Source: Candidatus Nomurabacteria bacterium
Lineage (GTDB): Bacteria > Patescibacteriota > Minisyncoccia > Phycocordibacterales > UBA9973
DNA: 64,000 nucleotides
Reading direction: 5' to 3'
NCBI GenBank assembly: GCA_021413905.1
Contig: JAIOPO010000001.1
Coordinates: forward strand, 137,159-201,158
Shown here: positions 226 to 34,137 of the stretch, in pieces
How positions within the stretch are numbered: position 1 is the stretch's first letter
How the letters are laid out: the number at the start of each line of letters is the position of its first letter
Position numbers and translations under genes: made by a program
Notes under the pieces: generated by a model
The model's database searches: none
Told to the model about the DNA's origin: nothing
Seen by the model: the letters and a program-made list of their open reading frames with translations, nothing else

Positions 226-639
226 ATGGCAACAGAGAAAAAAACAACAGAAAAATATATTGAAGCAATAGGCAGAAGAAAAACTTCTACTGCTCGTGTT
301 CGTATCACAGAATCCAGTAAAGCTACTTTTCTAGTTAACGATAGAGATGCGAAAGAATATTTTCAAACTGAAGATCAAAGACGTCTTGTTCAAGATCCTA
401 TAGTAAAAGGAAAACCTGGTTCTAAATGGAGTGTTGAAGTTCATGTTTCAGGCGGAGGAATACATTCTCAAGCTGAAGCTGTGCGTCATGGACTTTCTCG
501 CGCTTTGACAGAATCAGAACCAGAACTTCGTGGTAAATTAAAAACACTTGGTTTCTTGAAAAGAGATCCTCGTGCAAAAGAACGTCGTAAATTCGGACTT
601 AAGAAAGCTCGTAAAGCTCCACAATGGAGTAAACGTTAA
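226..639 (+). CDS. rpsI: 30S ribosomal protein S9
   Basis: 137 aa. Contains GGGIHSQAEAVRHGLSRAL and ends KKARKAPQWSKR, the S9 signature tail. Confidence 0.95.
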   Translation: MATEKKTTEKYIEAIGRRKTSTARVRITESSKATFLVNDRDAKEYFQTEDQRRLVQDPIVKGKPGSKWSVEVHVSGGGIHSQAEAVRHGLSRALTESEPELRGKLKTLGFLKRDPRAKERRKFGLKKARKAPQWSKR

Positions 640-690: not shown

Positions 691-1278
691 ATGGATGATG
701 AAGAAATAAAAAAAGTAGATAATTCTGAGCTAAAAGAAGACGATACAGAAGTCGTGGATTTTGAATTCAATGAAGATGGGGAAGAGGATTTAAAGAAAAC
801 TTTAAAGAAAATTCGCGCGGATTTAAAACAAGCTAAAAAAGAGAAAGAAGAATATTTGACCGGTTGGCAAAAAGAGCGAGCAGATTTTGTGAATTATAAG
901 AAACAAGAAGAAGAAAGAAAAGCTATGTTTTCTGAATCAATGCGTGAGAGGATTTTAACAAGTTTTCTTTCTGTTATGGATAATTTCAGTATGGCATTTT
1001 CCAATAAGGAGGCTTGGGAAAAAGTGGATGAAAATTGGCGCAAAGGTGTGGAATATATTTATGGTCAAATGTCTGGAGTTTTCGAAGAATATGGTGTAAA
1101 AAGTTTTGGTGAAATTGGAGAAGCTTTTGATCCGAGTCTGCATGAATCGATTGAAATGGTAGATACAGATAATAAAGAAAATAATCACAAAATTTCCGCA
1201 GTAATTCAAAAAGGTTACAAACTTGGTTCTCGTGTCATTCGCCCAGCGCGAGTGAATGTCTTTGAATATAAAGAATAA
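691..1278 (+). CDS. grpE: Nucleotide exchange factor GrpE
   Basis: 195 aa. Acidic N-terminus, coiled-coil region (ADFVNYKKQ), C-terminal GEAFDPSLHE...GYKLGSRVIRPARV characteristic of GrpE. Confidence 0.9.
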   Translation: MDDEEIKKVDNSELKEDDTEVVDFEFNEDGEEDLKKTLKKIRADLKQAKKEKEEYLTGWQKERADFVNYKKQEEERKAMFSESMRERILTSFLSVMDNFSMAFSNKEAWEKVDENWRKGVEYIYGQMSGVFEEYGVKSFGEIGEAFDPSLHESIEMVDTDNKENNHKISAVIQKGYKLGSRVIRPARVNVFEYKE

Positions 1279-1286
1279 TTAAATAA

Positions 1287-2984
1287 ATGTCCCACGAAAT
1301 ACAAAAAGTCACATGTCAGAATCACAACATCAGTAAACACTGCCAAGGGGAATTTACGATAGAACCCGATGATTTTGTGTTTTACAAAAAGATAAAAGTG
1401 CCTCCACCGACATTTTGTCCGGAGTGTAGAACCCAAAGAGCTATGGTTTGGAGAAATGAAACAACTTTGTATTCAGGTAATAAATGCAATCTTTGCAATA
1501 AAAGTGTTTTAACTATGTATAATCCAAAATCTGATTTTATTATTTATTGTAATTCATGTTATAGGGGAGACAAATGGGAACCAAGAGATTATGCAATGGA
1601 TTATGATTTTTCAAAATCATTCTTTGAACAATTTGAAGATTTGATGCGCAAAGTTCCTAAGAATGCATTATATAATACGAGTGGAGCTGGATTGATAGTT
1701 GATAGTCCTTATAACAATTGTGTTGGAGGGCTTAAGAATTGCTACATGTGTTTTAATTCAGCTAATTTAGAAGATTGCATGTATTCAAGAGGGGTTACAC
1801 GTTCGAAAGAAGTTTTGGATTCTTATTTTTGTAAAAAAATAGAAAATTGTTATGAGGCAATAAATACATATAATAGTGTGAATTCTTTTTGGATACAAAA
1901 TTCAAATGATATCTTAGATTCAATTTTTTTATATGATTGTGCAAATGTTTCAAATTGTTTAGGTTGTGTTAATTTGAGAAATAAAAGTTTTTGCATATTA
2001 AATGAACAATATTCCAAAGAAGAATATTTTAGTTTTTTAAATAAAATAAAAGGTTCATATTCAAATCTAGAAAATTTTAGAAATCAATTTATTTCATTGA
2101 CAAAAAGTTTACCAAAAAGAGCTAATCAAAATATTAAAACAATGGATTGCGTAGGGGATTATTTAACAGAATGTAAAAATGTTAAACATGGATTTGAAGT
2201 TATGAACTCTGAAGATTGCAAAAGGATATATTTTGGTAGGGATATAAAAGACAGTAGAGGTACTATTGGGTATGGTATAAAATCAGAGCTACTTTTAGAA
2301 TGTGTTTCCACTGGTTATACTTCTAGGGCTATCGGATGCTGGGCTTGTGAATTATCTCAAGATTTAGAATATTGTGTATCGTGTTTTCCTAGTAATAAGA
2401 ATTTAATAGGATGCGATTCTATGAGAAATTCTCAATATTGTATTTTAAATAAACAATATTCAAAAGAAGAATACGAAAAAATAAAAATACATATAAATGA
2501 AGAACTTACAGTATTAGGAGTCTATGGATTAATGTTACCTTCTGAAATTTCTCCTTTTTCTTATAATGAAACATTGGCACAAGATAACTATAATTTATCA
2601 GAAGAAGAAGTTTTAAAAGAAGGTTTTGTGTGGGAAAAAGACATACAAATGACCTCGGGAAAAGAAACCGCGGACATAAATTCTTTAGTAGATAATATCA
2701 ATGAAACTTCAGAAGATATATGTAAAGAAATTTTAGCCTGTATTGATTGTAATAGAAACTATAAAATAACTGAGCAAGAATTTTATTTCTACAAAAACAA
2801 AATTATCCCTGTTCCAAGAAAATGTTTTTATTGTAGACATCAATCAAGAATAGTGAAAAGAGGAAGTTTGAGATTTGATAAAGAAATATGTAATAAATGT
2901 AATATTGATATATATACAAATTTAAATCCCAAAGACGGAGATATAGTTTACTGTGAAAAATGTTATCAGCAAAAAGTTTATTAA
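1287..2984 (+). CDS. Cysteine-rich repeat protein with N- and C-terminal tetra-Cys zinc-ribbon-like modules, function unknown
   Basis: 565 aa, about 50 Cys. N-terminal F.FYKKIKVPPPTFCPECRTQR...C..C...YC.SCY resembles the C-terminal FYFYKNKIIPVPRKCFYCRHQSR...CNKC...YCEKCY. Internal repeats include RNKSFCILNEQYSKEEY and RNSQYCILNKQYSKEEY. Confidence 0.7.
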   Translation: MSHEIQKVTCQNHNISKHCQGEFTIEPDDFVFYKKIKVPPPTFCPECRTQRAMVWRNETTLYSGNKCNLCNKSVLTMYNPKSDFIIYCNSCYRGDKWEPRDYAMDYDFSKSFFEQFEDLMRKVPKNALYNTSGAGLIVDSPYNNCVGGLKNCYMCFNSANLEDCMYSRGVTRSKEVLDSYFCKKIENCYEAINTYNSVNSFWIQNSNDILDSIFLYDCANVSNCLGCVNLRNKSFCILNEQYSKEEYFSFLNKIKGSYSNLENFRNQFISLTKSLPKRANQNIKTMDCVGDYLTECKNVKHGFEVMNSEDCKRIYFGRDIKDSRGTIGYGIKSELLLECVSTGYTSRAIGCWACELSQDLEYCVSCFPSNKNLIGCDSMRNSQYCILNKQYSKEEYEKIKIHINEELTVLGVYGLMLPSEISPFSYNETLAQDNYNLSEEEVLKEGFVWEKDIQMTSGKETADINSLVDNINETSEDICKEILACIDCNRNYKITEQEFYFYKNKIIPVPRKCFYCRHQSRIVKRGSLRFDKEICNKCNIDIYTNLNPKDGDIVYCEKCYQQKVY

Positions 2985-2986
2985 AT

Positions 2987-3520
2987 TTATTTCTTAAAAG
3001 TTTCAAATAAAAACTTTTTTGTTTCTTCGTCTATGTATTCTGTTTTTATTATCATCATCTCTGTGGTGAGTCCTAAATCTTTTTTTATATTTTCAAAAAG
3101 GTATTCATACGGGAAAGGGGAGATCCAAGCAGAATTTTTCAAGCAGACGAAGCCCGCTTTTTTTAATAAATAGCGCAAGCTCTCTCGCTCGTTTTTTCTA
3201 TTCTCCGGCAAGTCGAGTAAAATAATCCTCCAAAATCCGTCCCAAGAAGTGTTTGCCAAAGTCGTCTCATTTTCCAGCCTTAAACTATGCATTTTCTTTT
3301 TTCCTTCTTTCGTCAGTCTCGCATAATCATTCTGCCCGGATGAGATGTGTTCTACTAGCCCTGCGTCTCGTAGGCCTTTTAAAGACCTTGTAATAGCATA
3401 CTTGTCTAGGGCGGAGGAGTTTCCTTCGCTATCTGCTTTATTGTGCAATTCTGGCAATGAAACGGCATTTTTACCCCCTAAAATCCTTATTATTTTCTTG
3501 GAAAAGTCTTTGTTTTTCAT
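2987..3520 (-). CDS. Putative PaaX-family-like transcriptional regulator (winged-helix N-terminus plus PaaX_C-like domain)
   Basis: 177 aa. N-terminal wHTH-like segment (LKGLRDAGLVEH). C-terminal WDGFWRIILLDLPENRKNERESLRYLLKKAGFVCLKNSAWISPFP matches the W.G.W...D.PE..R..LR..L...GF pattern of the PaaX C-terminal domain. Confidence 0.55.
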   Translation of the reverse strand: MKNKDFSKKIIRILGGKNAVSLPELHNKADSEGNSSALDKYAITRSLKGLRDAGLVEHISSGQNDYARLTKEGKKKMHSLRLENETTLANTSWDGFWRIILLDLPENRKNERESLRYLLKKAGFVCLKNSAWISPFPYEYLFENIKKDLGLTTEMMIIKTEYIDEETKKFLFETFKK

Positions 3521-3645
3521 AAATTTGTCCTGTCCCGTTAGAGATAGGGAATCTTTAGATTACCGTAAAAGCTCTAATGGGATTGACATACTTATATCCT
3601 ATCATATATACTGTTTTTAACAAGTATTCTGCGGTCGCGAAATAC

Positions 3646-3674
3646 TTGCAAAATAATTAGGGCTTCTATATAAT
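3646..3674 (+). promoter_or_regulatory. Sigma70-like promoter TTGCAA-N17-TATAAT driving LMW-PTP-like gene and probably dnaK
   Basis: ttgcaa at 3646-3651, 17-nt spacer, tataat at 3669-3674. ATG at 3683 implies a 1-2 nt leader. A second TTGACA-N16/17-TATATA is at 3583-3611. Confidence 0.4.
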
Positions 3675-3682
3675 AGGTTTAT

Positions 3683-4096
3683 ATGAGAAAAATTATTTTC
3701 ATTTGTAAAAGAAATAGATTTAGAAGCCAGATTGCTAAGGCTTTAACTAATAAATTACTTAGCGATAATTGGGTAGCTGAATCTTATGGATTTTTAGTTA
3801 GACCAGAAGATGAAAAAAATCCTTTTTCTAATAATCCAAAAGTAGGTGAAACAATTAAGGGTTTGAAGGAAATAGATATTGATATCTCTGATGGTTTGTC
3901 GAAACAACTTAGTTCAGAAAATTTAGAAGATGTAAATAGAATTGTTGTTTTGACTGAAGAAGAAGATATTCCAGATTGGTTTAAAAAATATGATTATGAA
4001 CATTGGAATGAAATAAAAAATTTCCCTGGAAGTCCAACTTTAGAAAAAACAAGGAGAACAATCGAGTTAGTTAAAAAAAGATTAGAAACATTATAA
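3683..4096 (+). CDS. Low-molecular-weight phosphotyrosine-phosphatase/ArsC-fold protein with divergent P-loop
   Basis: 137 aa. N-terminal IIFICKRNRFRSQIAKAL fits the LMW-PTP C-x5-R-S P-loop but with CKRNRFRS instead of C(L/T)GN(I/T)CRS. DIPDW loop downstream. Only 21 nt separate it from dnaK. Confidence 0.65.
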   Translation: MRKIIFICKRNRFRSQIAKALTNKLLSDNWVAESYGFLVRPEDEKNPFSNNPKVGETIKGLKEIDIDISDGLSKQLSSENLEDVNRIVVLTEEEDIPDWFKKYDYEHWNEIKNFPGSPTLEKTRRTIELVKKRLETL

Positions 4097-4117: not shown

Positions 4118-6025
4118 ATGTCAAAAATAATAGGAATAGACTTGGGTACAACAAATAGCGCGGTTGCTATTATCGAAGGAGGACAGCCGAAGATTATAGA
4201 AAATATTGAAGGGGCGAGGACGACGCCGAGTATTGTTTCCGTGGCAAAAAATGGAGACAGATTAGTGGGGCTACTTGCAAAAAGACAAGCGGTGACAAAT
4301 CCGGAAAATACCGTGTACGGTATCAAGCGTTTTATGGGTCACAATTTTGAAGATCCGGAAGTGCAGAAAGATTTAAAAAATGCTTCTTTTAAAATCCAAA
4401 AATCCGCAAACGGCGGAGTGGAAGTAAAAATCGGCGATAAATGGATGCGCCCGGAAGAAATTTCCGCGATGATTTTAACAAAAATCAAAACAGACGTGGA
4501 AGCAAAAATCGGAGAGAAAATAACCGAAGCAGTGATCACAGTGCCTGCATATTTCAACGATGCGCAAAGAAAAGCGACAAAGGATGCAGGAATGATTGCC
4601 GGTCTTGATGTGAAAAGAATTATCAACGAGCCGACAGCGGCAGCTCTTGCATATGGTTTTAATTCAAAGAAAAATGAAAAGATAGTGGTGTATGATTTTG
4701 GAGGCGGAACATTTGATATTTCTGTTTTGGAAGTGGGTGATGATGTTATTGAAGTGAAGTCTACAGATGGAGACAGTCACCTCGGCGGTCGCGACCTTGA
4801 CCACAAGATTATCGCTTGGATTGCGGATGAATTTAAAAAGACTTCAGGTGTGGATGTACGCACTGACGCATTGGCATTGCAACGTCTCGATGAAGCTGCG
4901 GAAAAAGCAAAGATAGAGCTTTCTACAGCTATTGAAACAGAAATAAATATTCCTTTTATCACTTCCACAGCTTCAGGTCCGCAACACTTACTCTTGAAAA
5001 TGTCTCGCGCTCAGCTCGAAGCTATTGCGGATGAATATGTGTCTCGTTCTATTGAGATAACAAAACGCGCGATGACTGCGTCCGGTTTTAAAATGGAAGA
5101 AATAAATGAAATTGTGATGGTCGGAGGTCAGACAAGAATGCCGAAAATTGTGGAAGCGGTGAAAAATCTTTTTGGAAAAACTCCAAACCTTTCTATTAAT
5201 CCTGACGAAGTGGTGGCTCTCGGAGCTGCGGTGCAAGCGGGAGTGTTGCAAGGGGATGTGAGGGATGTTTTGCTTCTTGATGTTATTCCATTATCTTTGG
5301 GTATTGAAACATTGGGCGGAGTGGCTACGAAACTCGTGGAAAGAAATACGACAATTCCATCAAGTAAATCACAAGTATTTTCTACAGCAGCGGATAATCA
5401 GACAAGCGTGGAAATACATATCGTGCAAGGTGAAAGACCGATGGCATCTGATAACAAATCATTAGGAAGATTTATTCTGGATGGTGTACCACCGGCACCT
5501 CGTGGTATTCCGCAAGTGGAAGTTTCTTTTGATGTGGATGCAAATGGAATACTCAATGTGACTGCGAAAGACAAAGCTTCCGGTAAAACTCAATCTATTA
5601 AAATAGAAGCGAGTTCCGGTTTGAAAGATGAAGACATAAAGAAAATGCAAGCTGATGCCGAAGTGCACGCCGAAGAAGATAAAAAGAAAAAAGAAATGGC
5701 GGATGTGCGCAATACTGCGGAGATGACATTGTACACAGCAGAGAAATCTTTAAAAGATAATGAAGCAAAAATTCCAGAAGAGGTGAAAACAGAAGTAAAT
5801 GAAAAAATCACAAATGTGCGCTCTACAAAAGACAGCACAGATATGGAAGCTTTGAAAAAAGCGGTGGAAGAGCTTTCATCTTCAATGTCTAAGATTGGCG
5901 AGGCTATGGCTAATTCTTCGGCAAGCGCAGGACAAGAACAAGCAGAATCTTCAAATGTTGAAGAGCAACCAACAGAAGTAAAAAATGAAGAAGTAAAGCC
6001 TGAAGGCGAAGAGCCAAAAGCTTAA
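4118..6025 (+). CDS. dnaK: Molecular chaperone DnaK (Hsp70)
   Basis: 635 aa. [41 protein letters not shown] and other Hsp70 signatures, with acidic C-terminal tail. Confidence 0.97.
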
Positions 6026-6037
6026 TACTACTAAAAA

Positions 6038-6066
6038 GCCCCGCGCCTTTGGCGCGGGGCTTTTTG
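6038..6066 (+). terminator. Strong GC-rich intrinsic terminator after dnaK
   Basis: gccccgcgcc-ttt-ggcgcggggc perfect 10-bp GC stem followed by ttttt. Separates dnaK from the downstream ATPase gene. Confidence 0.85.
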
Positions 6067-6071
6067 TTTGT

Positions 6072-7880
6072 TTGTATTTTTGGTATAATAAAAAAATGGA
6101 TTCTCACGAATTGCCAAAAAATAAAGATTTGACATATATCGGACTGACGACTTTTCGTGATAAGAAAAATCTTTTTGGTATAAAACGTAAAGACAGAAGA
6201 CAACATGTATATGTATTGGGTAAATCCGGTACCGGTAAATCCGTGCTTCTTTCCAATATGATTGTGCAAAATATCCAAAATGGAGACGGTGTTTGTGTTG
6301 TGGATCCACACGGAGAACTCGTCGAAGGAATATTACAATCCATACCAGAGAATCGCTTGAAAGATGTAGTATATTTTAATCCGGCGGATACGGATTATCA
6401 TATTGGTTTCAATGTATTGGAATTAATAGATCCGAAATACAAACATCTCGTGGCTTCCGGACTCATGGGTATTTTTACTAAAATTTGGGCTAATGCATGG
6501 AGTGCCAGAATGGAATATATTTTAAATAATGCTATTTTGGCATTGCTTGATACTCCGGGTTCCACATTACTCGGTATTCCAAGACTTTTGGTTGATAAAG
6601 ATTATCGTCAAAAGATAATAAATAATTTGAAAGACCCTGTTATCAAAGCTTTTTGGATTCATGAATATGAAGCTTGGCAAGAGAAATTTCGAAATGAAGC
6701 TATTGCACCTATTCAAAACAAAGTCGGACAATTCCTCTCTACATCTATCATTCGTAACGTTGTCGGCCAAGCAAAAAGCACGATAAATATTTTCGACATT
6801 ATGAATGAAAGTAAAATATTTTTGGTGAATGTTTCCAAAGGGCGTATTGGTGAAGATAATTCCGCTTTGCTCGGAGGTATGATAATTACAAAAATACAAC
6901 TCGCCGCGATGGAACGCGTGCGTATACCCGAAGATGACCGTAAAGATTTTTATTTATATGTGGACGAATTCCAAAATTTTGTGACGGATTCTTTCGCAAG
7001 TATTCTTTCTGAAGCTCGTAAATATCGCCTCAATCTGACTGTCGCTCATCAATACACAGCACAACTCGTCACAGACAATGGTTCTGCTGTGCGTGATGCT
7101 GTTTTTGGTAACGTCGGAACAATGATTATTTTTCGTGTCGGTGCAGACGACGCTGGCTTTTTAGAAAAAGAATTTGAACCTGAATTCACACCTCAAGATA
7201 TTGTGAATTTACCAAACTATAAAATATATTTGCGTTTAATGATAGACGGAGTGACTTCCAGACCATTTTCCGCAAAAACATTGCCACCAATAATAAAAAA
7301 TCCAGATCCAAAAATAGAGCAATCTGTAATAGATTCTTCTCGTGCATTGTATTGTTTACCAAAAGATGTGGTAGAAAGAGAAATCAATAATTGGAGTGGT
7401 ATGTCTTTGGGAGACAATGAAAATGGAAATATGGAAAAATTCCCGGCTGTTTGTTCTATTTGTAAAAAAGAAACTTTTGTCCCATTCCAACCACAACCGG
7501 GCAGACCTGTGTATTGTAAAGATTGCATAGCAAAAATGAAATCCGGTGAGTTAAAGCCATTGAGTGGTTCTATGAATCAAATAAAACAAGATGAAAGTAA
7601 ATTTTATCAACCCTTAGTTGATTTAGGTATAGAATTTAGTGATAAAGGTAATGCAAATACTAATAATATCAAACCAAAAAATAATAGTGTTATTTCTTCT
7701 GTAAAAAATATATTCAACAAAAATCAGAATTCAAATACATTGAAACCTCCGATGAATAAGAATATAAATAATTTCAATAAATTTAAAAATCCTGCTCCTG
7801 TCATAAAAAAGCCAGAAATAAAAAAAGAAACCTGTCATAAAAAAGCCAGAAATAAAAAAAGAAAATGTTGCTTTGCGTGA
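6072..7880 (+). CDS. Soluble VirD4/TraD/TrwB-like (T4CP family, FtsK-HerA superfamily) P-loop ATPase, paralog 1; reading frame broken near 3' end
   Basis: Walker A VLGKSGTGKS, then VVDPHGEL (compare TrwB GATGTGKS...DPNGD). Walker B FYLYVDEFQN. LTVAHQYTAQL fits the T4CP QxxxQL motif. No N-terminal TM segment. C-terminal CxxC...CxxC zinc ribbon and K/N/P-rich tail. Confidence 0.8.
   Translation: MYFWYNKKMDSHELPKNKDLTYIGLTTFRDKKNLFGIKRKDRRQHVYVLGKSGTGKSVLLSNMIVQNIQNGDGVCVVDPHGELVEGILQSIPENRLKDVVYFNPADTDYHIGFNVLELIDPKYKHLVASGLMGIFTKIWANAWSARMEYILNNAILALLDTPGSTLLGIPRLLVDKDYRQKIINNLKDPVIKAFWIHEYEAWQEKFRNEAIAPIQNKVGQFLSTSIIRNVVGQAKSTINIFDIMNESKIFLVNVSKGRIGEDNSALLGGMIITKIQLAAMERVRIPEDDRKDFYLYVDEFQNFVTDSFASILSEARKYRLNLTVAHQYTAQLVTDNGSAVRDAVFGNVGTMIIFRVGADDAGFLEKEFEPEFTPQDIVNLPNYKIYLRLMIDGVTSRPFSAKTLPPIIKNPDPKIEQSVIDSSRALYCLPKDVVEREINNWSGMSLGDNENGNMEKFPAVCSICKKETFVPFQPQPGRPVYCKDCIAKMKSGELKPLSGSMNQIKQDESKFYQPLVDLGIEFSDKGNANTNNIKPKNNSVISSVKNIFNKNQNSNTLKPPMNKNINNFNKFKNPAPVIKKPEIKKETCHKKARNKKRKCCFA
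7797..7864 (+). repeat. Perfect 34-bp tandem duplication (2 copies) causing +1 frameshift
   Basis: cctgtcataaaaaagccagaaataaaaaaagaaa at 7797-7830 is repeated exactly at 7831-7864. 34 is not divisible by 3. Removing one copy fuses ORF 6072.. in frame with ORF 7873..8220. Confidence 0.9.
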
Positions 7881-9462: not shown

Positions 9463-10950
9463 TTGAGAAAAGTGTCAATTTGTAGTAAAATTAAAACAAT
9501 GTCATTAAAACCAAATCGAGTTCAAATAATCAAATATGCGCCACCACCACCGGAATTACCCGTATATGGCAAAATAAAACCTGAAGAAGTTTCTTTTATT
9601 GGGCGGACAAATTATGTCGCAGCTCTCGAAGAAAAGAAATTTATTTTTGGAATAAAACGTATCGACAGACGAAGACATTTATATATTGTCGGTAAATCAG
9701 GAGTAGGTAAATCAAAATTACAAGAATTAATGATTCGCCAAGACATAGCTTATGGCTATGGTGTCTGTGTTATAGATCCGCACGGAGAATTGATAGATGA
9801 TATTTTGGAATTTGTTCCGGAGAATCGCATTGAAGATGTTTGTATTATCGACCCGAGCGATGTGGATTTTCCTGTTTCTTTTAATCCTTTGGCAAATATT
9901 GATCCAGGGTTTAAACATCAGCTCACTCAAGGTTTGATTGAAGTTTTGAAAAAGCAATTCGGTTCAAACTGGACACCGCGTCTAGAACACGTATTTCGTT
10001 TTACTGTGCTTGCTTTGCTCGACTATCCATATGCCACAATGCGCGGAATGATTTCAATGTTGACCGACAGAAATTATAGACAAAAAGTAGTCGAATATAT
10101 CGAAGATGATATGGTTAAAAGATTCTGGGCTATAGAATTCGCTGATTGGTCTGAAAAATTCGACACAGATGCCATCATTCCGCTCGTGAATAAACTCGGA
10201 CAATTCCTCTCAGACCCTATGCTTCGCAATATTTTCGGTCAAATAGAAAACAAAGTTGATTTGGAAAAATTAATGAATGAACAAAAAATAATTTTCATTA
10301 ATTTGTCAAAAGGGCGTATCGGAGAAGAAAATGCTTCTTTCTTTGGAGCGATGTTTATCACAAAAATAAAACAAGCCGGTATGGCTCGTGCAAAACTTGC
10401 CAAAGAAGATAGACATGATTTTTATTTATATGTGGATGAGTTTCAGAATTTGGTGACAGACACATTTGAAAACATTTTATCTGAAGCTCGTAAATATGGT
10501 TTGAATCTGACTGTGGCGCACCAATACGTGAGTCAACTTTTGCCGAAAGTGCAACAAGCTGTGATGGGTAATGTAGGCTCTATTATCACATTTCGTGTCG
10601 GTGGTGATGATGCAGTAAAATTAAAACCTGAATATGAACCTATTTTCGGAGTGAAAGATATGATAAATCTGGGAGTGGGAGAATTTTATATCAAAATGAC
10701 GATTGATGGCGAGAGTTATGATCCTTTTTCCGCAGAGACTTTGAAAGTTTTACCACCGACACATCCTTCATATAGAGAGCGCATTGTGGAAGCTTCTCGC
10801 AGGAAATACGCAATGCCAGCCGAAGACGTGAAGCGTGTTTATGAACAAGAAGAATCAATGATTGTCCGTAGCGCAAAAGAAAAGTCAGCAATCGTTAGCG
10901 ATAAGATTGAAGATAAAAAAACTGAAGAAGATATCAGTCCGTTAATATAA
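9463..10950 (+). CDS. Soluble VirD4/TraD/TrwB-like (T4CP family) P-loop ATPase, paralog 2
   Basis: 495 aa. IVGKSGVGKS, VIDPHGEL, FYLYVDEFQN, LTVAHQYVSQL. About 50% identical to paralog 1 over the ATPase core with the same motif order. No TM segment. Confidence 0.8.
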   Translation: MRKVSICSKIKTMSLKPNRVQIIKYAPPPPELPVYGKIKPEEVSFIGRTNYVAALEEKKFIFGIKRIDRRRHLYIVGKSGVGKSKLQELMIRQDIAYGYGVCVIDPHGELIDDILEFVPENRIEDVCIIDPSDVDFPVSFNPLANIDPGFKHQLTQGLIEVLKKQFGSNWTPRLEHVFRFTVLALLDYPYATMRGMISMLTDRNYRQKVVEYIEDDMVKRFWAIEFADWSEKFDTDAIIPLVNKLGQFLSDPMLRNIFGQIENKVDLEKLMNEQKIIFINLSKGRIGEENASFFGAMFITKIKQAGMARAKLAKEDRHDFYLYVDEFQNLVTDTFENILSEARKYGLNLTVAHQYVSQLLPKVQQAVMGNVGSIITFRVGGDDAVKLKPEYEPIFGVKDMINLGVGEFYIKMTIDGESYDPFSAETLKVLPPTHPSYRERIVEASRRKYAMPAEDVKRVYEQEESMIVRSAKEKSAIVSDKIEDKKTEEDISPLI

Positions 10951-10964
10951 AATTTTAAAAAAAT

Positions 10965-10992
10965 TTGACCAAAGTTTTTGCTTGAGTATAAT
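10965..10992 (+). promoter_or_regulatory. Sigma70-like promoter TTGACC-N16-TATAAT for dnaJ (leaderless configuration)
   Basis: ttgacc at 10965-10970 and tataat at 10987-10992. The dnaJ ATG at 10999 is 7 nt after the -10 box. Confidence 0.45.
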
Positions 10993-10998
10993 ACAAAT

Positions 10999-12099
10999 AT
11001 GAGTAAAGATTATTATGAACTATTGGGTATAAATAAAGGCGCGAGTAAAGAGGAGATAAAAAAGGCCTTTCATAAAATGGCGCATAAATATCATCCTGAT
11101 AAAAAAGAAGGAGATGAAAAGAAATTCAAAGAAGTAAATGAAGCGTATCAGACTCTCTCTGACGATAGAAAGCGCGCGCAGTATGACCAATTTGGCGCAG
11201 GTTATCAGAATGCTGGTTTTGGTGGTGGACAGAGCGGATATCAAGGTGGTTTCGGAGGAGGTTTTGAAGGATTTGATTTTTCCGGTTTCCAACAAGGTGG
11301 TGGAATGGATTTTGATTTAAATGATATTTTCTCAGATTTCTTTTCCGGAGGTATGGGCGGAGGTAGAACACAACAAAGACGTGGACGAGATATTTCTACT
11401 GAAATACAAATTTCTTTTGCCGATGCGGTTTTTGGCGTGGACAGAAAAATTTTAATTACAAAGACTTCAAATTGTGATACTTGTCATGCTAGTGGTGCAA
11501 AACCTGGAACCAAAATGGAGACTTGTAAGAAATGCAATGGTCAAGGAAAAATACACGAAGCAAAGAGGACGATATTGGGAACAATTTCCAGCACAAAACT
11601 TTGCGAGCAATGTTTTGGCTCAGGCGAAGTACCGAAAGAAAAATGTGAGAAATGTCATGGTGTGGGTGTTCTAAAAAAACAAGAAGAAATATCTATCGCA
11701 GTGCCTGCGGGCATTCGTGATGGCGAGATGATACGCATGACGGGCATGGGTGAAGCTGTTTCTAAAGGCACTACTGGCGACTTGTATATAAAAATAAATG
11801 TTGCTCCGCATCCTGTGTTCAAACGCGATGGGCATGACCTAGTGATGAATTTAAATTTGAAACTTTCTGATGCATTACTCGGCACTGAATACAAAATAGA
11901 AACTTTGGACGGGGAAGTGAAAGTGCAAATTCCTGAAGGTGTCACCATAAATGAAATCTTGCGAGTGAAAGGCAAAGGCGTACCTGTATCAAAAGGCAAA
12001 CGTGGCGATATCCTTATAAAACTAAATATAAAACTCCCTTCAAAAATCTCCCGCAAATCTCGCGAGTTAATCGAGGAACTCAAAAAAGAGGGGATTTAA
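10999..12099 (+). CDS. dnaJ: Molecular chaperone DnaJ (Hsp40)
   Basis: J-domain DYYELLGI...[17 protein letters not shown]-rich linker, four CxxCxGxG zinc-finger repeats, C-terminal dimerisation region. The start is chosen at MSKDYYE rather than the upstream TTG. Confidence 0.95.
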
Positions 12100-29084: not shown

Positions 29085-29840
29085 ATGGAAATTTTGGAAA
29101 ATGAAGTACTGGAAAATGCTTATCTTATAAAAACCACTGGATTTGAAGGTCCTTTTGGTGTTCTTTTGAATTTAATAGAATCCAGAAAACTTTTCATAAA
29201 TGATTTTTCTTTGGCTCAAGTCACAGAAGATTATTTGCAATATGTGAATAATTTGGGAGGGTTAACACCGGCAGAAATTTCAAGTTTCATTATAGTGGCT
29301 TCGACTTTAATTTTAATAAAGTCAAAATCACTTTTACCTAATTTGAATTTGACCAATGAAGAAGAGTGTGAGATTTCAAATTTGGAAGACAGGTTAAAAC
29401 TCTATGAATTGTATTCAAAATTGTCTTTATCTGTAAAAGAAAAATTTTCTAAAAATATTATTTTCGCTCCTTTGGAAAGAAAAAATAATTTATTGGTTTT
29501 CTTACCTGATGATCAAATCACTCGCGAGAGTATGATGACTTTTGCACAAGAAGCCTTAAACAGAATACCTAAAAAGGTTTTACTCCCTGAAGTAGAAGTA
29601 AAAAAAGTCATAAGTATAGAAGAAATGATTGATAAGTTGACGGCTAGAATCCAAGAAGGCTTGCGGATGAATTTCAAGGAGTTTGCCGGCTCGGCGCAAA
29701 CAAAAGAAGAAAGAGTAGTTGTAATTGTAGGATTTCTTGCTATGCTAGAATTAGTGCGAGGAGGTATATTGAATGTGATACAGGATAATAATTTTGAAGA
29801 TATTATAATTGAAAAACAGGTTCTAGTTGCTAGTGACTAG
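29085..29840 (+). CDS. scpA: Segregation and condensation protein A
   Basis: 251 aa. GFEGPFGVLLNLIESRKLFINDFSLAQVTEDYLQYV is the typical ScpA N-terminus. Followed by scpB. Confidence 0.85.
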   Translation: MEILENEVLENAYLIKTTGFEGPFGVLLNLIESRKLFINDFSLAQVTEDYLQYVNNLGGLTPAEISSFIIVASTLILIKSKSLLPNLNLTNEEECEISNLEDRLKLYELYSKLSLSVKEKFSKNIIFAPLERKNNLLVFLPDDQITRESMMTFAQEALNRIPKKVLLPEVEVKKVISIEEMIDKLTARIQEGLRMNFKEFAGSAQTKEERVVVIVGFLAMLELVRGGILNVIQDNNFEDIIIEKQVLVASD

Positions 29841-29858
29841 TTTCTAGAAAATAGATAT

Positions 29859-30416
29859 ATGGATATAGAACAAAAAATAGAAGCATTGTTATTTTGGAAA
29901 GGCGAATCAATTTCTCGAAAAAAACTTTCGGAAGTTTTGGAAGTTGATATTCAAGAAATAAATGATGCTATAGAAAAATTGAAAGAAAATTTTCAAAATA
30001 GAGGAATAGTTGTAATGGAAAAAGAAAATGAAATAATGCTCGGCACTGCTCCTGAATTGTCAGAACTTTTTGAGAAAATACAAAAAGAAGAATTGAATAA
30101 AGAATTATCGAAAGCAAGTCTAGAAACATTGTCCATCGTTTTATACAAAAATGGAGCGAGTCGCGCGGAGATTGATTATATTCGTGGAGTGAATTCCAGT
30201 TTTATTTTACGCAATTTGGCTATTCGCGGACTTGTGGAAAAAGTCATAGATGATACTGACAATAGAAAATATATTTACAAGCCGACTTTCGAACTTTTAT
30301 CTTTTATGGGGGTAAAAAACATACAAGAATTGTCTGATTTTACAAATATCAATGATGTAGTGGAAAAGACCGCTCAAGAATTCGCCAAACAAGAAAATAA
30401 TGAAGAAGCACAATAA
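29859..30416 (+). CDS. scpB: Segregation and condensation protein B
   Basis: 185 aa. Tandem winged-helix pattern (IEALLFWKGESISRKKLSEVL..., ...SRAEIDYIRGVNSSFILRNL). Confidence 0.85.
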   Translation: MDIEQKIEALLFWKGESISRKKLSEVLEVDIQEINDAIEKLKENFQNRGIVVMEKENEIMLGTAPELSELFEKIQKEELNKELSKASLETLSIVLYKNGASRAEIDYIRGVNSSFILRNLAIRGLVEKVIDDTDNRKYIYKPTFELLSFMGVKNIQELSDFTNINDVVEKTAQEFAKQENNEEAQ

Positions 30417-31284
30417 GTATCTTTACTTTTTTGTTTTATTTTTTCTTGCCTTGGAGGCAATTTTGTTTTTTGTAAACAATCTAAAATTGGAAAAAGAATT
30501 TCAAAAACATGAAAGTAATATTTTAAATATTCAAAATAAAATTTCAGAAGAAACAATATATGCAAAAAGTTTTTCGATTTATGATTTAAATATTCAAAGA
30601 GAAATTTATAGTAAAAATTCCAATATGGTTTTACCTTTGGCATCTCTGACAAAGACGATGACTATGCTAATAGTCTTGAATGAAAACAAAAAGGACAATA
30701 TCGTAAATATTTCAAAAAATGCATTATTGCAAGACGGGGATTATGGTTTTTCTGTCGGTGAAAAATTAAAAATAGAAGATTTGGTAAAATTCACATTGAT
30801 TTCTTCTGCAAATGATGGAGCATATGCCTTGTCTGAACTTGTGCAGAACATTACCGAAAAGATGAATATTAAAGCAAAAAAAATAGGTCTGGAAAATACT
30901 TATTTTTTGAATCCTACTGGCCTGGATATCAGTGCTCATAAAGCAGGGGCTTATGGCACAGCTTTGGATATGAATTTATTGGCAATATACGCCGTAAAAG
31001 AATATCCGGAAATATTTGATGCTACAAAATTGACGGAAATAAATTTAAAATCCGAATCGGGTAAAAATCATTTTGAGAAAAATACGAATATTTTAGCGCA
31101 AAAAATTCCAAATTTAATTTTTTCAAAAACAGGCTTTACAAATATAGCAGGTGGCAATTTGTCTGTAATTTTTCAAAATAAAGAAGGGCATAAAATAGCC
31201 ATTACTGTCCTGAATTCAACTTTCGATGGCCGTTTTGTGGATATGGATAAACTTATTAATTTATTATATAATTGGAGTTATTAA
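30400..31284 (+). CDS. D-alanyl-D-alanine carboxypeptidase (S11, PBP5/6-like)
   Basis: 294 aa. N-terminal TM/signal segment. SLTK (SxxK), SAN (SxN) and KTG motifs in canonical order. Confidence 0.8.
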   Translation: MKKHNKYLYFFVLFFLALEAILFFVNNLKLEKEFQKHESNILNIQNKISEETIYAKSFSIYDLNIQREIYSKNSNMVLPLASLTKTMTMLIVLNENKKDNIVNISKNALLQDGDYGFSVGEKLKIEDLVKFTLISSANDGAYALSELVQNITEKMNIKAKKIGLENTYFLNPTGLDISAHKAGAYGTALDMNLLAIYAVKEYPEIFDATKLTEINLKSESGKNHFEKNTNILAQKIPNLIFSKTGFTNIAGGNLSVIFQNKEGHKIAITVLNSTFDGRFVDMDKLINLLYNWSY

Positions 31285-31294
31285 AATTAAAAAA

Positions 31295-31322
31295 AGCTGA
31301 GGGTGACCCAGCTTTTTGTTTT
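31295..31322. terminator. Hairpin terminator between convergent genes
   Basis: agctg-a-ggg-tga-ccc-agct stem (8 bp plus bulge) followed by ttttgtttt. A-run upstream. Confidence 0.5.
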
Positions 31323-31335
31323 AAAGATGCAGGAT

Positions 31336-31839
31336 TTATTTTTTACCCTGCAGGATTTTGTTTTTTATAACCGAAATTAATTGTGGATGTATCCACAGAT
31401 GACTCGGTTTATATTTTCCATTATTTATCATTTCTATTAGTTTAACGGAACTAATATCCGCCACAGATTTTTCTGCGGGAATACAGAGAATTTTTTCTTT
31501 GTTTGTTTGAAATTTTTTTAAAAATTCTCCTTTTTCATCTTCATTATTGAAAGAACAAACAACCCTATCAGCTTTTTCAATGTAATCGATTACTGATTTT
31601 TTGTTCGAGGGTTTTAGGATGTTTTCTTTAGGTATACCGTAAAATTTATACGCTATATCTATTCTTTCTTCTAAAGAAAACAAAGGTTTTGTCTTCTCTT
31701 CTTCGTCGAAGATGCAAACAAACACTGGTCCTTTGTCTTTATGCTTAAAGATATTTTCGGCTTTTTTGATCAACCAAACATCTAATTGTGTCATTGGATC
31801 TATCGAACCAACGACAATAACTCTCGGTATTGTTTTCAT
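31336..31839 (-). CDS. Phosphopantetheine adenylyltransferase (CoaD)-like nucleotidyltransferase with degenerate HxGH motif
   Basis: 167 aa. VVGSIDPMTQLD in place of the PPAT GSFDPxTxGH. Retains FSLEER and a C-terminal ISSVKL (ISSTxxR-like) motif. Confidence 0.55.
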   Translation of the reverse strand: MKTIPRVIVVGSIDPMTQLDVWLIKKAENIFKHKDKGPVFVCIFDEEEKTKPLFSLEERIDIAYKFYGIPKENILKPSNKKSVIDYIEKADRVVCSFNNEDEKGEFLKKFQTNKEKILCIPAEKSVADISSVKLIEMINNGKYKPSHLWIHPQLISVIKNKILQGKK

Positions 31840-31944
31840 AATGTACGTTTTTTTAAATTCAATATCTTATAACATTTTTTAGATAAAAAGTAAATATCTA
31901 AAATAATTACATTTTATTAAATAATTTATGTTATAATACATTTC

Positions 31945-33000
31945 ATGTTGTTAAACATATTAAAAATTTTTGTGCCGACTGCAGTGGCTTTCTTTTTAGG
32001 GATAGCTATTACACCTGTAGCGACTTATTTTTTTTACAAATACAAAATGTGGAAAAAATATTCTCGCAATGAAAGTGTGACAAACGAAGATTTTAAAAAA
32101 ATACACAATGACGAGACAGAAAGACGCACTCCCAGAGTCGGAGGTATTATCATTTGGTTTTCAGTTTTTTTTACAAGTATTATTTTCTTTTTATTTTCAG
32201 TTTTTTCAAATATTCCAATGTTCGAAAAAATAAATTTTTTAAGTCGCAATCAAACTTTCATTCCATTTTTTACATTGTTACTCGGATCATTGATAGGTCT
32301 TTGGGATGATTTGATACAAATATATGGCAATGGAAAAATAGCTAAAGATGACGGATCTTGGCGTAAATGGAAAGCATTTTTAATCGCAAGTCTTTCTTTG
32401 CTTATAGGATGTTGGTTTTTTTATAAATTGGGAATGACGACAATACATATTCCTTTTTCCGGTGAATTGTATTTAGGCATATTGATTATTCCTTTTTTTA
32501 TAATAGTTTCTTTGGCCACTTTTTCCGGCGGAGTGATAGATGGCATAGACGGTCTTTCTGGTGGAGTTTTGGCTTCAATTTTTGCTTCATATTCAGCGAT
32601 AGCTTTTGCAAATAATCAGATAGACTTGTCTGCTTTTTCAGGAGTCATAACCGGGGCAATTTTGGCTTTTCTTTGGTTTAATATTCCACCGGCGAGGTTT
32701 TATATGGGAGAGACAGGTATGATGGGGCTCACGATAGTATTGGCAACCATGGCATTTTTGACTGATTCTGTGTTTATTTTGCCGATAGTTGCTTTACCTT
32801 TGGTTATCACTTCTTTGTCTGTAATTTTACAAACAGCTTCAAAGAAATTTCGAAATGGAAAAAAAGTTTTCAGAATTGCACCGATACATCATCATTTTGA
32901 AGCTCTCGGTTGGCCTTCTTCAAAAGTAACAATGCGTTTTTGGATTTTATCCGTAGTCTTTGCAATTGTCGGAATTATTTTAGCAATTATAAGTAAATAG
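31945..33000 (+). CDS. mraY: Phospho-N-acetylmuramoyl-pentapeptide transferase
   Basis: 351 aa. Ten TM helices, DGIDGLSGG and PIHHHFE motifs. Confidence 0.9.
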   Translation: MLLNILKIFVPTAVAFFLGIAITPVATYFFYKYKMWKKYSRNESVTNEDFKKIHNDETERRTPRVGGIIIWFSVFFTSIIFFLFSVFSNIPMFEKINFLSRNQTFIPFFTLLLGSLIGLWDDLIQIYGNGKIAKDDGSWRKWKAFLIASLSLLIGCWFFYKLGMTTIHIPFSGELYLGILIIPFFIIVSLATFSGGVIDGIDGLSGGVLASIFASYSAIAFANNQIDLSAFSGVITGAILAFLWFNIPPARFYMGETGMMGLTIVLATMAFLTDSVFILPIVALPLVITSLSVILQTASKKFRNGKKVFRIAPIHHHFEALGWPSSKVTMRFWILSVVFAIVGIILAIISK

Positions 33001-33005
33001 TTTTA

Positions 33006-34109
33006 ATGAAAAATAAAAAAGTAGATAAATTTTTTCTAATAATTGTTTTAATTTTAATTTTTGGCGGAGTTGCCATGTTTGTCTCAGCTTCATTGGGTAT
33101 TTTAGCAAAGAATAAAGACACTTTTTATTCTGTTTTGTTTAGTCAGCTGGTGTTAGGTCTCGGTTGTGGTTTGGTAGGAATGTATACAGCATTAAAAATA
33201 AATTATAAAATTTGGAGAAATTACGCTTTTTATATTTTTATAGCTTCTATCATATTGATGACTTTTGTATTTATACCGCATGTAGGTTGGAGTCACGGAG
33301 GAGCTACGAGATGGATAAAAATCGGCCCAGTTTCTTTTCAACCGGCAGAAATTTTAAAATTCAGTTTTATTATTTATTTTTCAGCATTTTTATCATGGTC
33401 TAAAGATAAAATAAAAAGTTTTAAATACGGTATTTTGCCTCTATTGGGAATGTTGGCTGTTATCGCTGTGGTTTTATTGAAACAACCAGATACAAAAAGT
33501 TTTATCTTGATAACGTTTACCGGTATTTGTATGTATTTTATTTCTGGTGGGCCTTGGAAATATATTGCAGGAATAGGAGCTATTTGTGTCGTTGTATTTG
33601 GAACATTAATATTTTTTACTCCGTATTTACAACAAAGAGTGAATACGTTTTTAGACCCGTCACATGATCCAAAAGGTTCTTCATATCAAATACAACAATC
33701 CATGATAGCTCTCGGCTCGGGTGGTATTTTCGGTAGAGGTTATGGACAAAGTATTCAAAAGTTCAGTTATTTACCTGAACCGCAAGGGGACTCTATTTTC
33801 GCTGTTTTAGGTGAAGAATTAGGATTTTTGGGTGCAGTAATAACAATATTTTTATATTGCGCTTTTGCTTTACGTGGAATACGTATTGCAAATAATTCAC
33901 CAGATTCATTCGGTAGACTTTTGGTCTCCGGAATTGTTATACTTATGACAGCGCAATCATTTATGAATATTGCGTCTATTGTAGGAGTTTTTCCTTTGAC
34001 AGGTGTTCCGCTTGTTTTTATGAGTCATGGGGGCACATCACTTATGATATATATGACGGCGATAGGTATCGTTCTGAATATATCTAAGTTTCAAAAATTT
34101 CTTGTTTAA
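33006..34109 (+). CDS. ftsW: SEDS-family peptidoglycan glycosyltransferase FtsW/RodA
   Basis: 367 aa. Multipass membrane protein with FQPAEILK, SDSIFAV and SHGGTS motifs. Confidence 0.88.
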   Translation: MKNKKVDKFFLIIVLILIFGGVAMFVSASLGILAKNKDTFYSVLFSQLVLGLGCGLVGMYTALKINYKIWRNYAFYIFIASIILMTFVFIPHVGWSHGGATRWIKIGPVSFQPAEILKFSFIIYFSAFLSWSKDKIKSFKYGILPLLGMLAVIAVVLLKQPDTKSFILITFTGICMYFISGGPWKYIAGIGAICVVVFGTLIFFTPYLQQRVNTFLDPSHDPKGSSYQIQQSMIALGSGGIFGRGYGQSIQKFSYLPEPQGDSIFAVLGEELGFLGAVITIFLYCAFALRGIRIANNSPDSFGRLLVSGIVILMTAQSFMNIASIVGVFPLTGVPLVFMSHGGTSLMIYMTAIGIVLNISKFQKFLV

Positions 34110-34137
34110 TTAAAAAAATAAAATTATAAAATATATT

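Follow-up and report, generated by a model that had tools for sequence, protein, structure and literature searches.

A cysteine-rich double beta-solenoid protein encoded behind grpE in a Candidatus Nomurabacteria genome: architecture, family and possible role

Why does a gene for a cysteine-rich repeat protein stand directly behind the chaperone gene grpE? The question is raised by the gene at 1287..2984 (plus strand) of a 64-kb stretch of contig JAIOPO010000001.1 from a Candidatus Nomurabacteria bacterium, the whole of which is called the window below. An original prediction had seen in it a highly unusual insertion into a chaperone operon, possibly with a redox or metal-sensing or client-like role in proteostasis. 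The present analysis leads to another picture. We are highly confident that the product is a near-palindrome (double treble-clef zinc module, first beta-solenoid R1 with its cap, second beta-solenoid R2 with its cap, acidic linker, double treble-clef zinc module), and that it belongs to a very large family, so far uncharacterised and confined to the candidate phyla radiation (CPR)/Patescibacteria. As to function, we tentatively favour a non-enzymatic, zinc-stabilised scaffold or adaptor. The family deserves attention, as the CPR/Patescibacteria account for much of bacterial diversity, with genomes under 1 Mb and many unannotated genes, and as thousands of sequence clusters share a fixed architecture of about 555 amino acids (aa) whose core has no Pfam or NCBIfam model.

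Domain architecture and family

The reading frame lies where it had been placed, opens with ATG and encodes 565 aa; its product is identical to a database protein, ‘hypothetical protein K8Q94_00800, Candidatus Nomurabacteria bacterium’ (P0001). The following features were delineated.

1287..2984, plus strand: target gene, ATG start, 565 aa, 65.7-kDa soluble protein, single-copy core orthogroup OG2
1299..1466 (aa 5-60), plus strand: predicted zinc site 1, N-terminal module, ligands C10, C19, C44, C47
1467..1580 (aa 61-98), plus strand: predicted zinc site 2, N-terminal module, ligands C67, C70, C88, C91
1581..1688 (aa 99-134), plus strand: connecting helix/linker, conserved F112, Q115, P124
1689..2006 (aa 135-240), plus strand: R1 beta-solenoid, about eight 12-residue repeats, ending in the cap motif NCxGCxNLxNKxxCIxN
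2007..2111 (aa 241-275), plus strand: R1 cap, QYSKEEY motif and helices 244-254 and 258-273, Y247 at least 90% conserved
2112..2456 (aa 276-390), plus strand: R2 beta-solenoid, about nine 12-residue repeats, ending xxIGCDxxxNxQYCILN, C376 and N388 invariant
2457..2519 (aa 391-411), plus strand: R2 cap, KQYSKEEYE motif and helix 393-410, Y391 invariant, Y396 at least 90% conserved
2520..2732 (aa 412-482), plus strand: acidic conserved linker, motif G-L-x2-P-x4-PF-x-YNET...G-F-x-W
2733..2870 (aa 483-528), plus strand: predicted zinc site 3, C-terminal module, ligands C485, C488, C513, C516, resembling zf_Tbcl (PF13451)
2871..2981 (aa 529-565), plus strand: predicted zinc site 4, C-terminal module, ligands C535, C538, C556, C559 (CxxC-x17-CxxC), resembling PF23477/TIGR04272
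1953..2026, plus strand: first copy of the nucleotide repeat, which codes for the R1 cap motif NCLGCVNLRNKSFCILNEQYSKEEY
2400..2473, plus strand: second copy of the nucleotide repeat, which codes for the R2 cap motif NLIGCDSMRNSQYCILNKQYSKEEY and shares 73% identity with the first

The proposal that homologous terminal modules bracket a repeat-built centre holds. Compared as profiles built from a 130-sequence alignment, aa 5-100 and 480-565 align over 81 columns with an hhalign probability of 99.6% and an E-value of 2.6e-24. The original cysteine counts, on the other hand, needed correction: cysteine accounts for 37 of the 565 residues (6.5%, rather than about 9%); each module does hold a ribbon of three CxxC pairs, but with spacings of CxxC-x19-CxxC-x17-CxxC (N-terminal) and CxxC-x18-CxxC-x17-CxxC (C-terminal) instead of the x17 and x16 given; and each contains eight cysteines, not six, C10/C19 and C485/C488 having been missed. 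Eight cysteines per module make two four-cysteine sites each, and thus four sites overall from the 16 terminal cysteines. In the AlphaFold2 (AF2) model, treble-clef geometry is seen at all four: a hairpin knuckle carries the first cysteine pair, and a helix begins at the second. These elements are a knuckle between strands 6-9 and 22-25 and helix 45-53 at site 1, hairpin 62-66/73-76 and helix 89-93 at site 2, and, at site 3, C485/C488 between strands 483-484 and 491-492 with C513/C516 at the start of helix 514-525.

Conservation differs between the sites. All four cysteines of site 4 are 100% conserved and those of site 1 98-100% conserved over the 130 sequences; C488, C513 and C516 of site 3 are only about 65% conserved family-wide; and the cysteines of site 2 are invariant in the query's branch, about 46% cysteine family-wide and lost in a Peregrinibacteria-type branch. 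Site 1, whose region is homologous to aa 483-525, is followed by a basic helix (R48, R51, R56-N57-E58), and the helices after C47 and C516 both carry arginine at roughly i, i+4 and i+8 (R48/R51/R56; R517/R521/R525), R517 and R521 being invariant. The first ribbon of the C-terminal module (C-ribbon-1) has a net charge of +7 in the target and +5.7 on average over the paralogues. As a peculiarity of the target, its first knuckle (window 1314-1343, aa 10-19) is a C-x8-C with two histidines, CQNHNISKHC, where nearly all homologues have CxxC; this six-residue insertion is shared only with an 80%-identical relative (P0002).

Matches of the target to known ribbon families remain below threshold: PF13451 (zf_Tbcl) reaches 15.2 bits on aa 483-521 (cut-off 24, E 0.02) and PF23477 (zf_Tbcl_2) 14.8 bits on aa 534-563 (cut-off 27, E 0.023), and TIGR04272 does not match. 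Among 32 diverse paralogues, the same three models match 13 (E<0.1, best 7.3e-6), 14 (best 7.4e-7) and 8 proteins, respectively, zf_Tbcl and zf_Tbcl_2 being the only recurrent Pfam matches in this set. Profile similarity thus makes homology to zf_Tbcl likely at the level of the family and leaves it uncertified for the target itself; the target has the CxxC-x17-CxxC spacing (C535-x2-C538-x17-C556-x2-C559).

Between the modules, aa 120-262 and 270-412 are homologous halves (hhalign E 7e-24, 114 columns, 25% identity). The autocorrelation of the profile peaks at lags 12 and 24, lag 12 being among the top autocorrelations in R2, and the repeats follow the register x-x-phi-x-[ND]-[CS]-phi-x-x-phi-x-x. 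With 40 close orthologues as input, AF2 gave both solenoids a predicted local distance difference test score (pLDDT) of about 55; with an alignment of 130 sequences drawn from two deep branches, the Peregrinibacteria-type one added, pLDDT rose to 90.5 and the predicted template-modelling score (pTM) was 0.91. This model contains short regular strands with the repeated DSSP pattern EEEEEEE--E--, that is, two beta-solenoids with interior Cys/Ser ladders, in line with the solenoid with cysteine ladders for which an AlphaFold check had been suggested. The central domain may be a novel type of short-period (12-residue) cytoplasmic beta-solenoid. A cytoplasmic location is supported as first proposed, the protein having neither a transmembrane (TM) segment nor a signal-like N-terminus (maximum Kyte–Doolittle 19-mer 1.1, pI 5.9), and a TM-like stretch occurs in only 1 of 207 family members. 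The acidic linker that follows R2 is the part most conserved inside the orthologue group (0.84), with net charges of -7 and -5 in its two parts and G414, Y426, N427, E428 and W449 as conserved residues.

About 20 solenoid cysteines occupy the [C/S] position of the register, at which cysteine and serine exchange roughly 1:1 among family members; C152, C224, C227 and C376 are the only fixed ones. From this pattern, the solenoid cysteines look like small interior ladder residues rather than metal or redox ligands. Their role as metal ligands was dropped on account of the exchange, which also lends no support to the redox or metal-sensing function once suggested for the protein.

The original prediction also pointed to a nucleotide-level repeat (1989..2027 versus 2436..2474) as a sign of ongoing internal duplication. 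The repeat exists and is longer than reported (74 nt, 73% identity); both copies encode the conserved cap motif NCxGCxxLxNxxxCIxNxQYSKEEY of each half. Ongoing duplication, however, is not supported: at the 16 identical cap-motif residues, 10 codons are identical, against 9.5 ± 1.8 expected from the AT-biased codon usage of the genome, and a recent event was rejected on this test. Cap-to-cap similarity is likewise found in 55 other members (median 63% at the nucleotide level), and the R1/R2 duplication occurs in all branches of the family. The repeat is therefore owing to a conserved cap motif written in AT-biased codons, and the sequence comparison places the R1/R2 duplication before the origin of the whole family.

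How far does this family extend? At 90% identity, more than 7,327 clusters match the query and 4,808 a 30%-identical paralogue; all are named ‘hypothetical protein’ except for two stray, zinc-ribbon-driven JGI labels (FwdE, Trm112-family), and the taxon labels among the matches include Nomurabacteria, Paceibacteria, Peregrinibacteria, Peribacteria and Gracilibacteria. Searched against 1.84 billion 50%-identity representatives, the family profile retrieved 2,343 proteins at E≤1e-30, and the 150 of them that were listed all measure 527-601 aa. A scan of one genome per species yielded at least 560 confirmed loci, the best 80 of which all come from CPR-type metagenome-assembled or single-cell genomes. 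Two records labelled ‘Burkholderiales bacterium’ hold family copies, JAMPXW010000001.1 (277 kb; L075, two copies) and the 268-kb contig of P0104; these labels are probably a binning or taxonomy error. Only one partial match was found among 2.9 million viral contigs, so that this is not a phage family, and in 50,697 phage genomes tblastn found no match to the target or to the one paralogue searched with it.

The family is multicopy. Across 85 loci (the window and 84 fetched loci, which were selected for their similarity to the query and are not phylogenetically independent), clustering of open reading frames (ORFs) identified 227 members, with tandem arrays. The largest array, in the single-cell genome Patescibacteria bacterium AH-259-L05, contains at least 17 full-length copies within 32 kb (contig JALLOO010000001.1, 1-32410, covered by the overlapping loci L062, 1-16947, and L025) and is broken once by an unrelated 392-aa ORF; it extends beyond the fetched region, and 17 is accordingly a lower bound. 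In some genomes such arrays reach at least 30 kb, or about 3-4% of a genome assumed to be under about 1 Mb. Copies within a locus are 39% identical in median (maximum 58%), whereas for 94% of copies a closer relative is found in a different genome (median 61%): judged by sequence, the paralogues are ancient and individually conserved. The retention of at least 17 ancient copies by a lineage that discards most biosynthetic genes signals an important function. The target's orthogroup, OG2, is the only strictly single-copy one (40 members in 40 loci) and the most conserved of the family; identity between orthologues is about 50-60%, at fixed length.

Gene neighbourhood and the chaperone genes

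Around the target, the window contains the following genes and signals.

226..639, plus strand: uS9 gene, same likely transcription unit as grpE and the target
691..1278, plus strand: grpE (Pfam GrpE 2.2e-38), co-directional with and directly upstream of the target
2987..3520, minus strand: PaaX-like regulator gene (winged helix-turn-helix plus PaaX_M; Pfam PaaX_M 5.8e-20), convergent with the target
3583-3612: near-consensus promoter-like site TTGACA-18-TATACT, before the LMWPc-dnaK unit
3683..4096, plus strand: low-molecular-weight (LMW) phosphotyrosine phosphatase/ArsC-like (LMWPc) gene, 137 aa, 21 nt upstream of dnaK
4118..6025, plus strand: dnaK, in a separate unit with the gene at 3683..4096
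6032-6066: strong terminator after dnaK
6072..7880, plus strand: soluble TrwB/TraD/VirD4-like ATPase gene (Pfam TrwB_AAD_bind 1.5e-12, zf_Tbcl_2 1.3e-12; TIGR04272 3.3e-13)
9463..10950, plus strand: second soluble TrwB/TraD/VirD4-like ATPase gene, lying with the first between dnaK and dnaJ
10978-12099: dnaJ, after the second TrwB-like gene

The 8-nt spacer from the end of grpE to the ATG of the target, and their common direction, are as first described, and this spacing suggests that the target is co-transcribed with a housekeeping unit. The target does lie upstream of dnaK, but not directly between grpE and dnaK, as two genes intervene. Together with the separate promoter-like site of dnaK, these intervening genes place the target outside the dnaK unit; it is likely the last gene of a uL13-uS9-grpE-target unit.

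The chaperone genes downstream have features of their own. The stop codons of the target and of the convergent PaaX-like gene are 2 nt apart, and the latter is also divergent from, and directly upstream of, the LMWPc-dnaK unit; it recurs beside dnaK in relatives (e.g. L006, L010, L012, L014, L017, L019, L029, L043, L052, L069 and L082). The LMW-phosphatase/ArsC-like gene, an unusual opening gene for a dnaK unit, apparently shares the dnaK promoter. No CIRCE element was found in the window, so that CIRCE/HrcA control of dnaK was rejected. Just past the promoter-like site, an 18-nt imperfect palindrome is found at 3616-3653 (region 3533-3674); it may be the operator of a heat-shock regulator other than HrcA in these CPR bacteria, namely the PaaX-like protein.

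Could the protein then be an accessory of the Hsp70 system, whether as a co-chaperone, as a sensor of redox state or metals, or as a client dedicated to GrpE, DnaK or DnaJ? Several observations are consistent with it. Relatives share a recurrent Paceibacteria-type block, uL13-uS9-GrpE-[T x1-3]-PaaX(-)-DnaK-TrwB-[T x0-4]-RsmE(-)-TrwB-[T]-DnaJ-[T], where T is a family member, so that the family fills up to four slots in the grpE-dnaK-dnaJ block. In the fetched relatives, 9 of 10 grpE genes have a member directly behind them, where permutation predicts 2.3, and the position behind grpE is thereby conserved. DnaK lies within 6 kb in 19 of the 85 loci and DnaJ in 18, the 8-nt spacing suggests co-transcription with grpE, and DnaJ, like the target with its four predicted sites, has zinc centres.

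Yet the same neighbourhoods argue against this explanation. The grpE-adjacent loci come from related genomes that share one synteny block and are therefore not independent. The copy in the slot is usually another paralogue, 31-40% identical to the query, whose own orthologue stands there only in L012. By permutation, arrays adjoin dnaK in 2 cases against 5.9 expected and dnaJ in 4 against 5.3, and in the window dnaK is two genes away with its own promoter-like site. Most copies are found in arrays or in other housekeeping blocks, between Mur ligases or between ScpAB and MraY-FtsW-MurG. The protein itself offers no J-domain or CXXCXGXG motif: DnaJ, DnaJ_C and DnaJ_CXXCXGXG are matched neither by the target (E≤1) nor by the 32 paralogues (E≤0.1), whereas a genuine DnaJ from the relatives matches all three; and the solenoid cysteines swap with serine. 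We consequently regard an Hsp70-accessory role as unlikely. The idea of an unusual insertion pointing to proteostasis is not borne out: the place behind grpE is an inherited family slot giving co-expression with housekeeping genes, without a demonstrated proteostasis role, and the grpE/dnaK neighbourhood is unfit to be read as evidence of one.

The window contains no second family copy in its 64 kb. Its ScpA-ScpB ... MraY-FtsW-MurG block (29085-35268) is devoid of the copy that relatives have there (L041, L042, L045-L048, L072, L084), and the slot behind the first TrwB-like gene is also empty. The source genome seems to keep just the core orthogroup, at least across these 64 kb.

A possible adaptor, its ATPase neighbours and rival explanations

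The gene most often found near family members is not a chaperone gene but one for a TrwB-like ATPase, which occurs within 6 kb in 37 of the 85 loci, always on the same strand; adjacency is observed 31 times against 17.5 expected (permutation, P 5e-4). Among 56 such proteins, 53 have no TM-like N-terminus and 25 carry a CxxC-x15-19-CxxC ribbon. Within 1.3 Mb, a hidden Markov model of the last ribbon of the family (C-ribbon-2) has 13 matches, all of them TrwB-like proteins. In the window, the ATPase at 6072..7880 has a CxxC-x17-CxxC ribbon at aa 455-490, with which it passes the PF23477/TIGR04272 cut-offs, and a long K/N-rich tail. This ATPase also matches phrog_5156 (function unknown) at 1.3e-62 and the PADLOC family ‘mad8’ at 6e-16. 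Even outside the chaperone block, TrwB-like genes occur once per 42 kb, against about two per genome in published work (PMC12102498). According to the same study, only 148 of 5,713 CPR homologues of VirD4/type IV coupling proteins (T4CP) lie near virB4, and exaptation is possible.

The mechanism that we tentatively favour, while granting it less than an even chance, is that of a non-enzymatic, zinc-stabilised rigid scaffold or adaptor. A non-enzymatic role is suggested by two features: the family-wide invariant residues include no histidine or serine, and so lack the nucleophiles and general bases most common in catalysis (the invariant acidic and amide residues are E58, Q115, D178, N239 and N388), and no enzyme family was matched in Pfam or NCBIfam by the 32 paralogues. 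The helices with arginine ladders (R48/R51/R56; R517/R521/R525, net +6 to +7) would contact a polyanion, for which nucleic acid is the likeliest candidate, or else a partner protein of acidic character; the double solenoid would act as a fixed spacer and recognition surface; and the paralogues would supply different specificities. The likeliest partners would be the soluble orphan VirD4/TrwB-like ATPases, whose genes cluster with the family and which bear the same terminal CxxC-x17-CxxC ribbon. Taken further, the system could be a hitherto undescribed CPR-specific machine, with the family as its specificity-giving half, in which ancient paralogous adaptors each recognise their own nucleic-acid or protein target and hand it over to soluble, exapted VirD4/TrwB-like hexameric ATPases with the same ribbon, a possibility that we consider rather speculative and improbable.

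Several points weigh against this interpretation. Nucleic-acid binding is suggested by charge and arginine spacing only, and conservation is even over all segments, with no variable ‘specificity’ surface standing out. The coil geometry, handedness and domain packing of the solenoids are read from the DSSP string alone. C-ribbon-2 resembles the second LIM finger of CRP1 (C-x2-C-x17-C-x2-C-Y) at E 4.9e-4, and LIM domains are protein–protein rather than nucleic-acid modules. As for the ATPases, the loci were picked by similarity to the query, and their contexts are hence a biased sample; outside the chaperone block, arrays adjoin TrwB-like genes 8 times against 6.7 expected (permutation, P 0.33), and the association may in large part be synteny that related genomes have inherited. 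This test weakens the proposal of a specific link between arrays and flanking TrwB-like genes, and the two densities of TrwB-like genes compared above come from different detection methods.

The ATPases also invite another explanation, in which the paralogues form a repertoire of secreted effectors, recruited by VirD4/TrwB-like proteins and sent to hosts by a type IV secretion system (T4SS), their diversity reflecting host interaction. The clustering with T4CP-like genes, the large paralogue arrays in episymbiont genomes and the wide occurrence of T4SS in Patescibacteria (PMC12102498) would fit such a scenario. However, orthologues are strongly conserved (about 50-60%, fixed length) rather than fast-evolving, the modelled zinc-stabilised fold stays compact as far as the last residues and shows no disordered signal at the C-terminus, a membrane-anchor-like N-terminus is found in only 3 of the 56 neighbouring ATPases, T4CP homologues rarely lie near virB4, and the target sits in a ribosomal-protein/grpE unit. 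Secretion is thus improbable.

We likewise judge improbable a self-assembling structural protein, whose solenoids would stack into bactofilin-like filaments or lattices, with the zinc modules as connectors and the paralogues as co-polymer subunits. Beta-solenoids often polymerise via their open ends; moreover, many conserved paralogues of identical size exist, and in several lineages they occupy cell-division and chromosome-segregation blocks (Mur ligases, ScpAB-MraY-FtsW-MurG). Here, though, a conserved cap motif and helices close each solenoid, which normally blocks end-to-end stacking, and neither bactofilin nor any other cytoskeletal family is matched.

A metal store or carrier of Fe-S or thiolate clusters, with chains of metal ions bound along the solenoid cysteine ladders, as they might also be in the phage proteins with cysteine at every third residue, is very improbable: 20 solenoid cysteines and a weak likeness to phage cysteine-repeat proteins (phrog_15341, 15 of 32 paralogues) speak for it, but most of these positions are about 50% serine, and with only four fixed cysteines, repeated four-ligand sites are impossible. 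A left-handed beta-helix enzyme, be it an acyltransferase, an acetyltransferase or one similar to gamma-carbonic anhydrase, is suggested by all of the weak Foldseek matches in the Protein Data Bank (PDB), but is effectively refuted by their quality (best E 7.7e-3, TM-score about 0.1), a repeat period of 12 instead of 18, and the absence of any Hexapep match among the 32 paralogues and of any invariant histidine or other catalytic residue.

Comparison with known systems

No well-characterised family accounts for the architecture of this protein in Pfam, NCBIfam, PDB sequence or Foldseek searches. Beyond the zinc ribbons, the central domain of the 32 paralogues has no Pfam or NCBIfam match; PADLOC returned no family for the target and one divergent paralogue; and a PDB sequence search gave nothing with the whole protein and, at E≤10, only a spurious coiled-coil match with the central profile. 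With Foldseek, no match at E≤1e-3 was obtained in the PDB or the viral BFVD, the latter giving zinc-ribbon fragments only. Our literature searches found no published description of the family, of its domains or of CPR cysteine-rich paralogues; those on domain accessions and names found only a paper on two Methanosarcina mazei small proteins whose CxxC-x17-CxxC domain binds zinc, as determined by inductively coupled plasma mass spectrometry, which is silent on this family (PMC12704099). The building blocks are nonetheless of known kinds, treble-clef ribbons and a cysteine-ladder beta-solenoid; it is the architecture, the family and its expansion that are undescribed in the libraries and literature searched.

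For the terminal modules, the closest likeness is to zf_Tbcl and zf_Tbcl_2, two probable treble-clef domain types in the same order as ribbons 1 and 2 of each module. Here, by contrast, the two are joined into a single unit of 85 aa, one copy of which stands at either end of the 565-aa chain. Membership in these Pfam and NCBIfam families, to which no function has been assigned, tells nothing of the mechanism. LIM domains share the arrangement of two consecutive four-ligand zinc sites, but only half of a LIM domain matches, no histidine ligand is present, the 85-aa module has an inserted helix, and Pfam LIM is matched by 1 of the 32 paralogues (E 0.042).

For the centre, the only links are weak ones, to phage proteins. 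PHROG 15341 (function unknown) matches 15 of the 32 paralogues over R1 or R1+R2 (best 1.9e-11) but not the target, and the central profile of the family scores 28 bits on a Vibrio phage protein, against at most 1.3 bits for shuffled and synthetic controls, in a context of high compositional bias. Such proteins (e.g. Vibrio phage NVP1238B_69) have similar short-period cysteine-ladder repeats; they are, however, 120-280 aa long, almost pure C-x-x-C-x-x, and without zinc-ribbon modules or cap motifs. Small proteins with cysteine at every third residue were seen in a Campylobacter phage (L087 2456-3007), between the portal and DNA-ligase genes, and in a Vibrio phage (L086 2378-2752), where the protein is annotated ‘insect antifreeze protein’ via IPR016133.

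Insect antifreeze beta-helices of the Tenebrio/Dendroides type are built of 12-residue TCTxSxxCxxAx coils, and share with the target the period and small Cys/Ser residues at fixed inward positions. The target has no TCT face, PDB profile match or Foldseek match, and no signal peptide, hence no oxidising compartment for disulfides; the likeness is one of repeat length only. With the left-handed beta-helices, it is limited to parallel-solenoid local geometry, which is all that the weak Foldseek matches tell on the basis of the model: these are all LpxD, GlmU, LpxA or gamma-carbonic anhydrase, with TM-scores of 0.08-0.10 and a root-mean-square deviation of 17-20 Å, and have 18-residue coils against 12 in the target.

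Finally, two comparisons concern the proposed adaptor and its partners. The recurrent neighbours are homologues of the canonical VirD4/TraD/TrwB coupling proteins, but differ from them in being soluble (53 of 56 without an N-terminal TM segment) and in some cases ribbon-bearing, and the CPR homologues are mostly unlinked to virB4 (PMC12102498). The target family, for its part, has none of the features of known T4SS substrates, its C-terminus being a confidently folded ribbon in the model. This link to orphan VirD4-like ATPases, whose role in the CPR was recently flagged as open (PMC12102498), is a concrete and testable handle; if true, the adaptor-machine reading would assign a function to thousands of orphan ‘coupling proteins’ of Patescibacteria. 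The logic of such target-specific adaptor sets would be analogous to that of the repeat families of PPR or TAL type.

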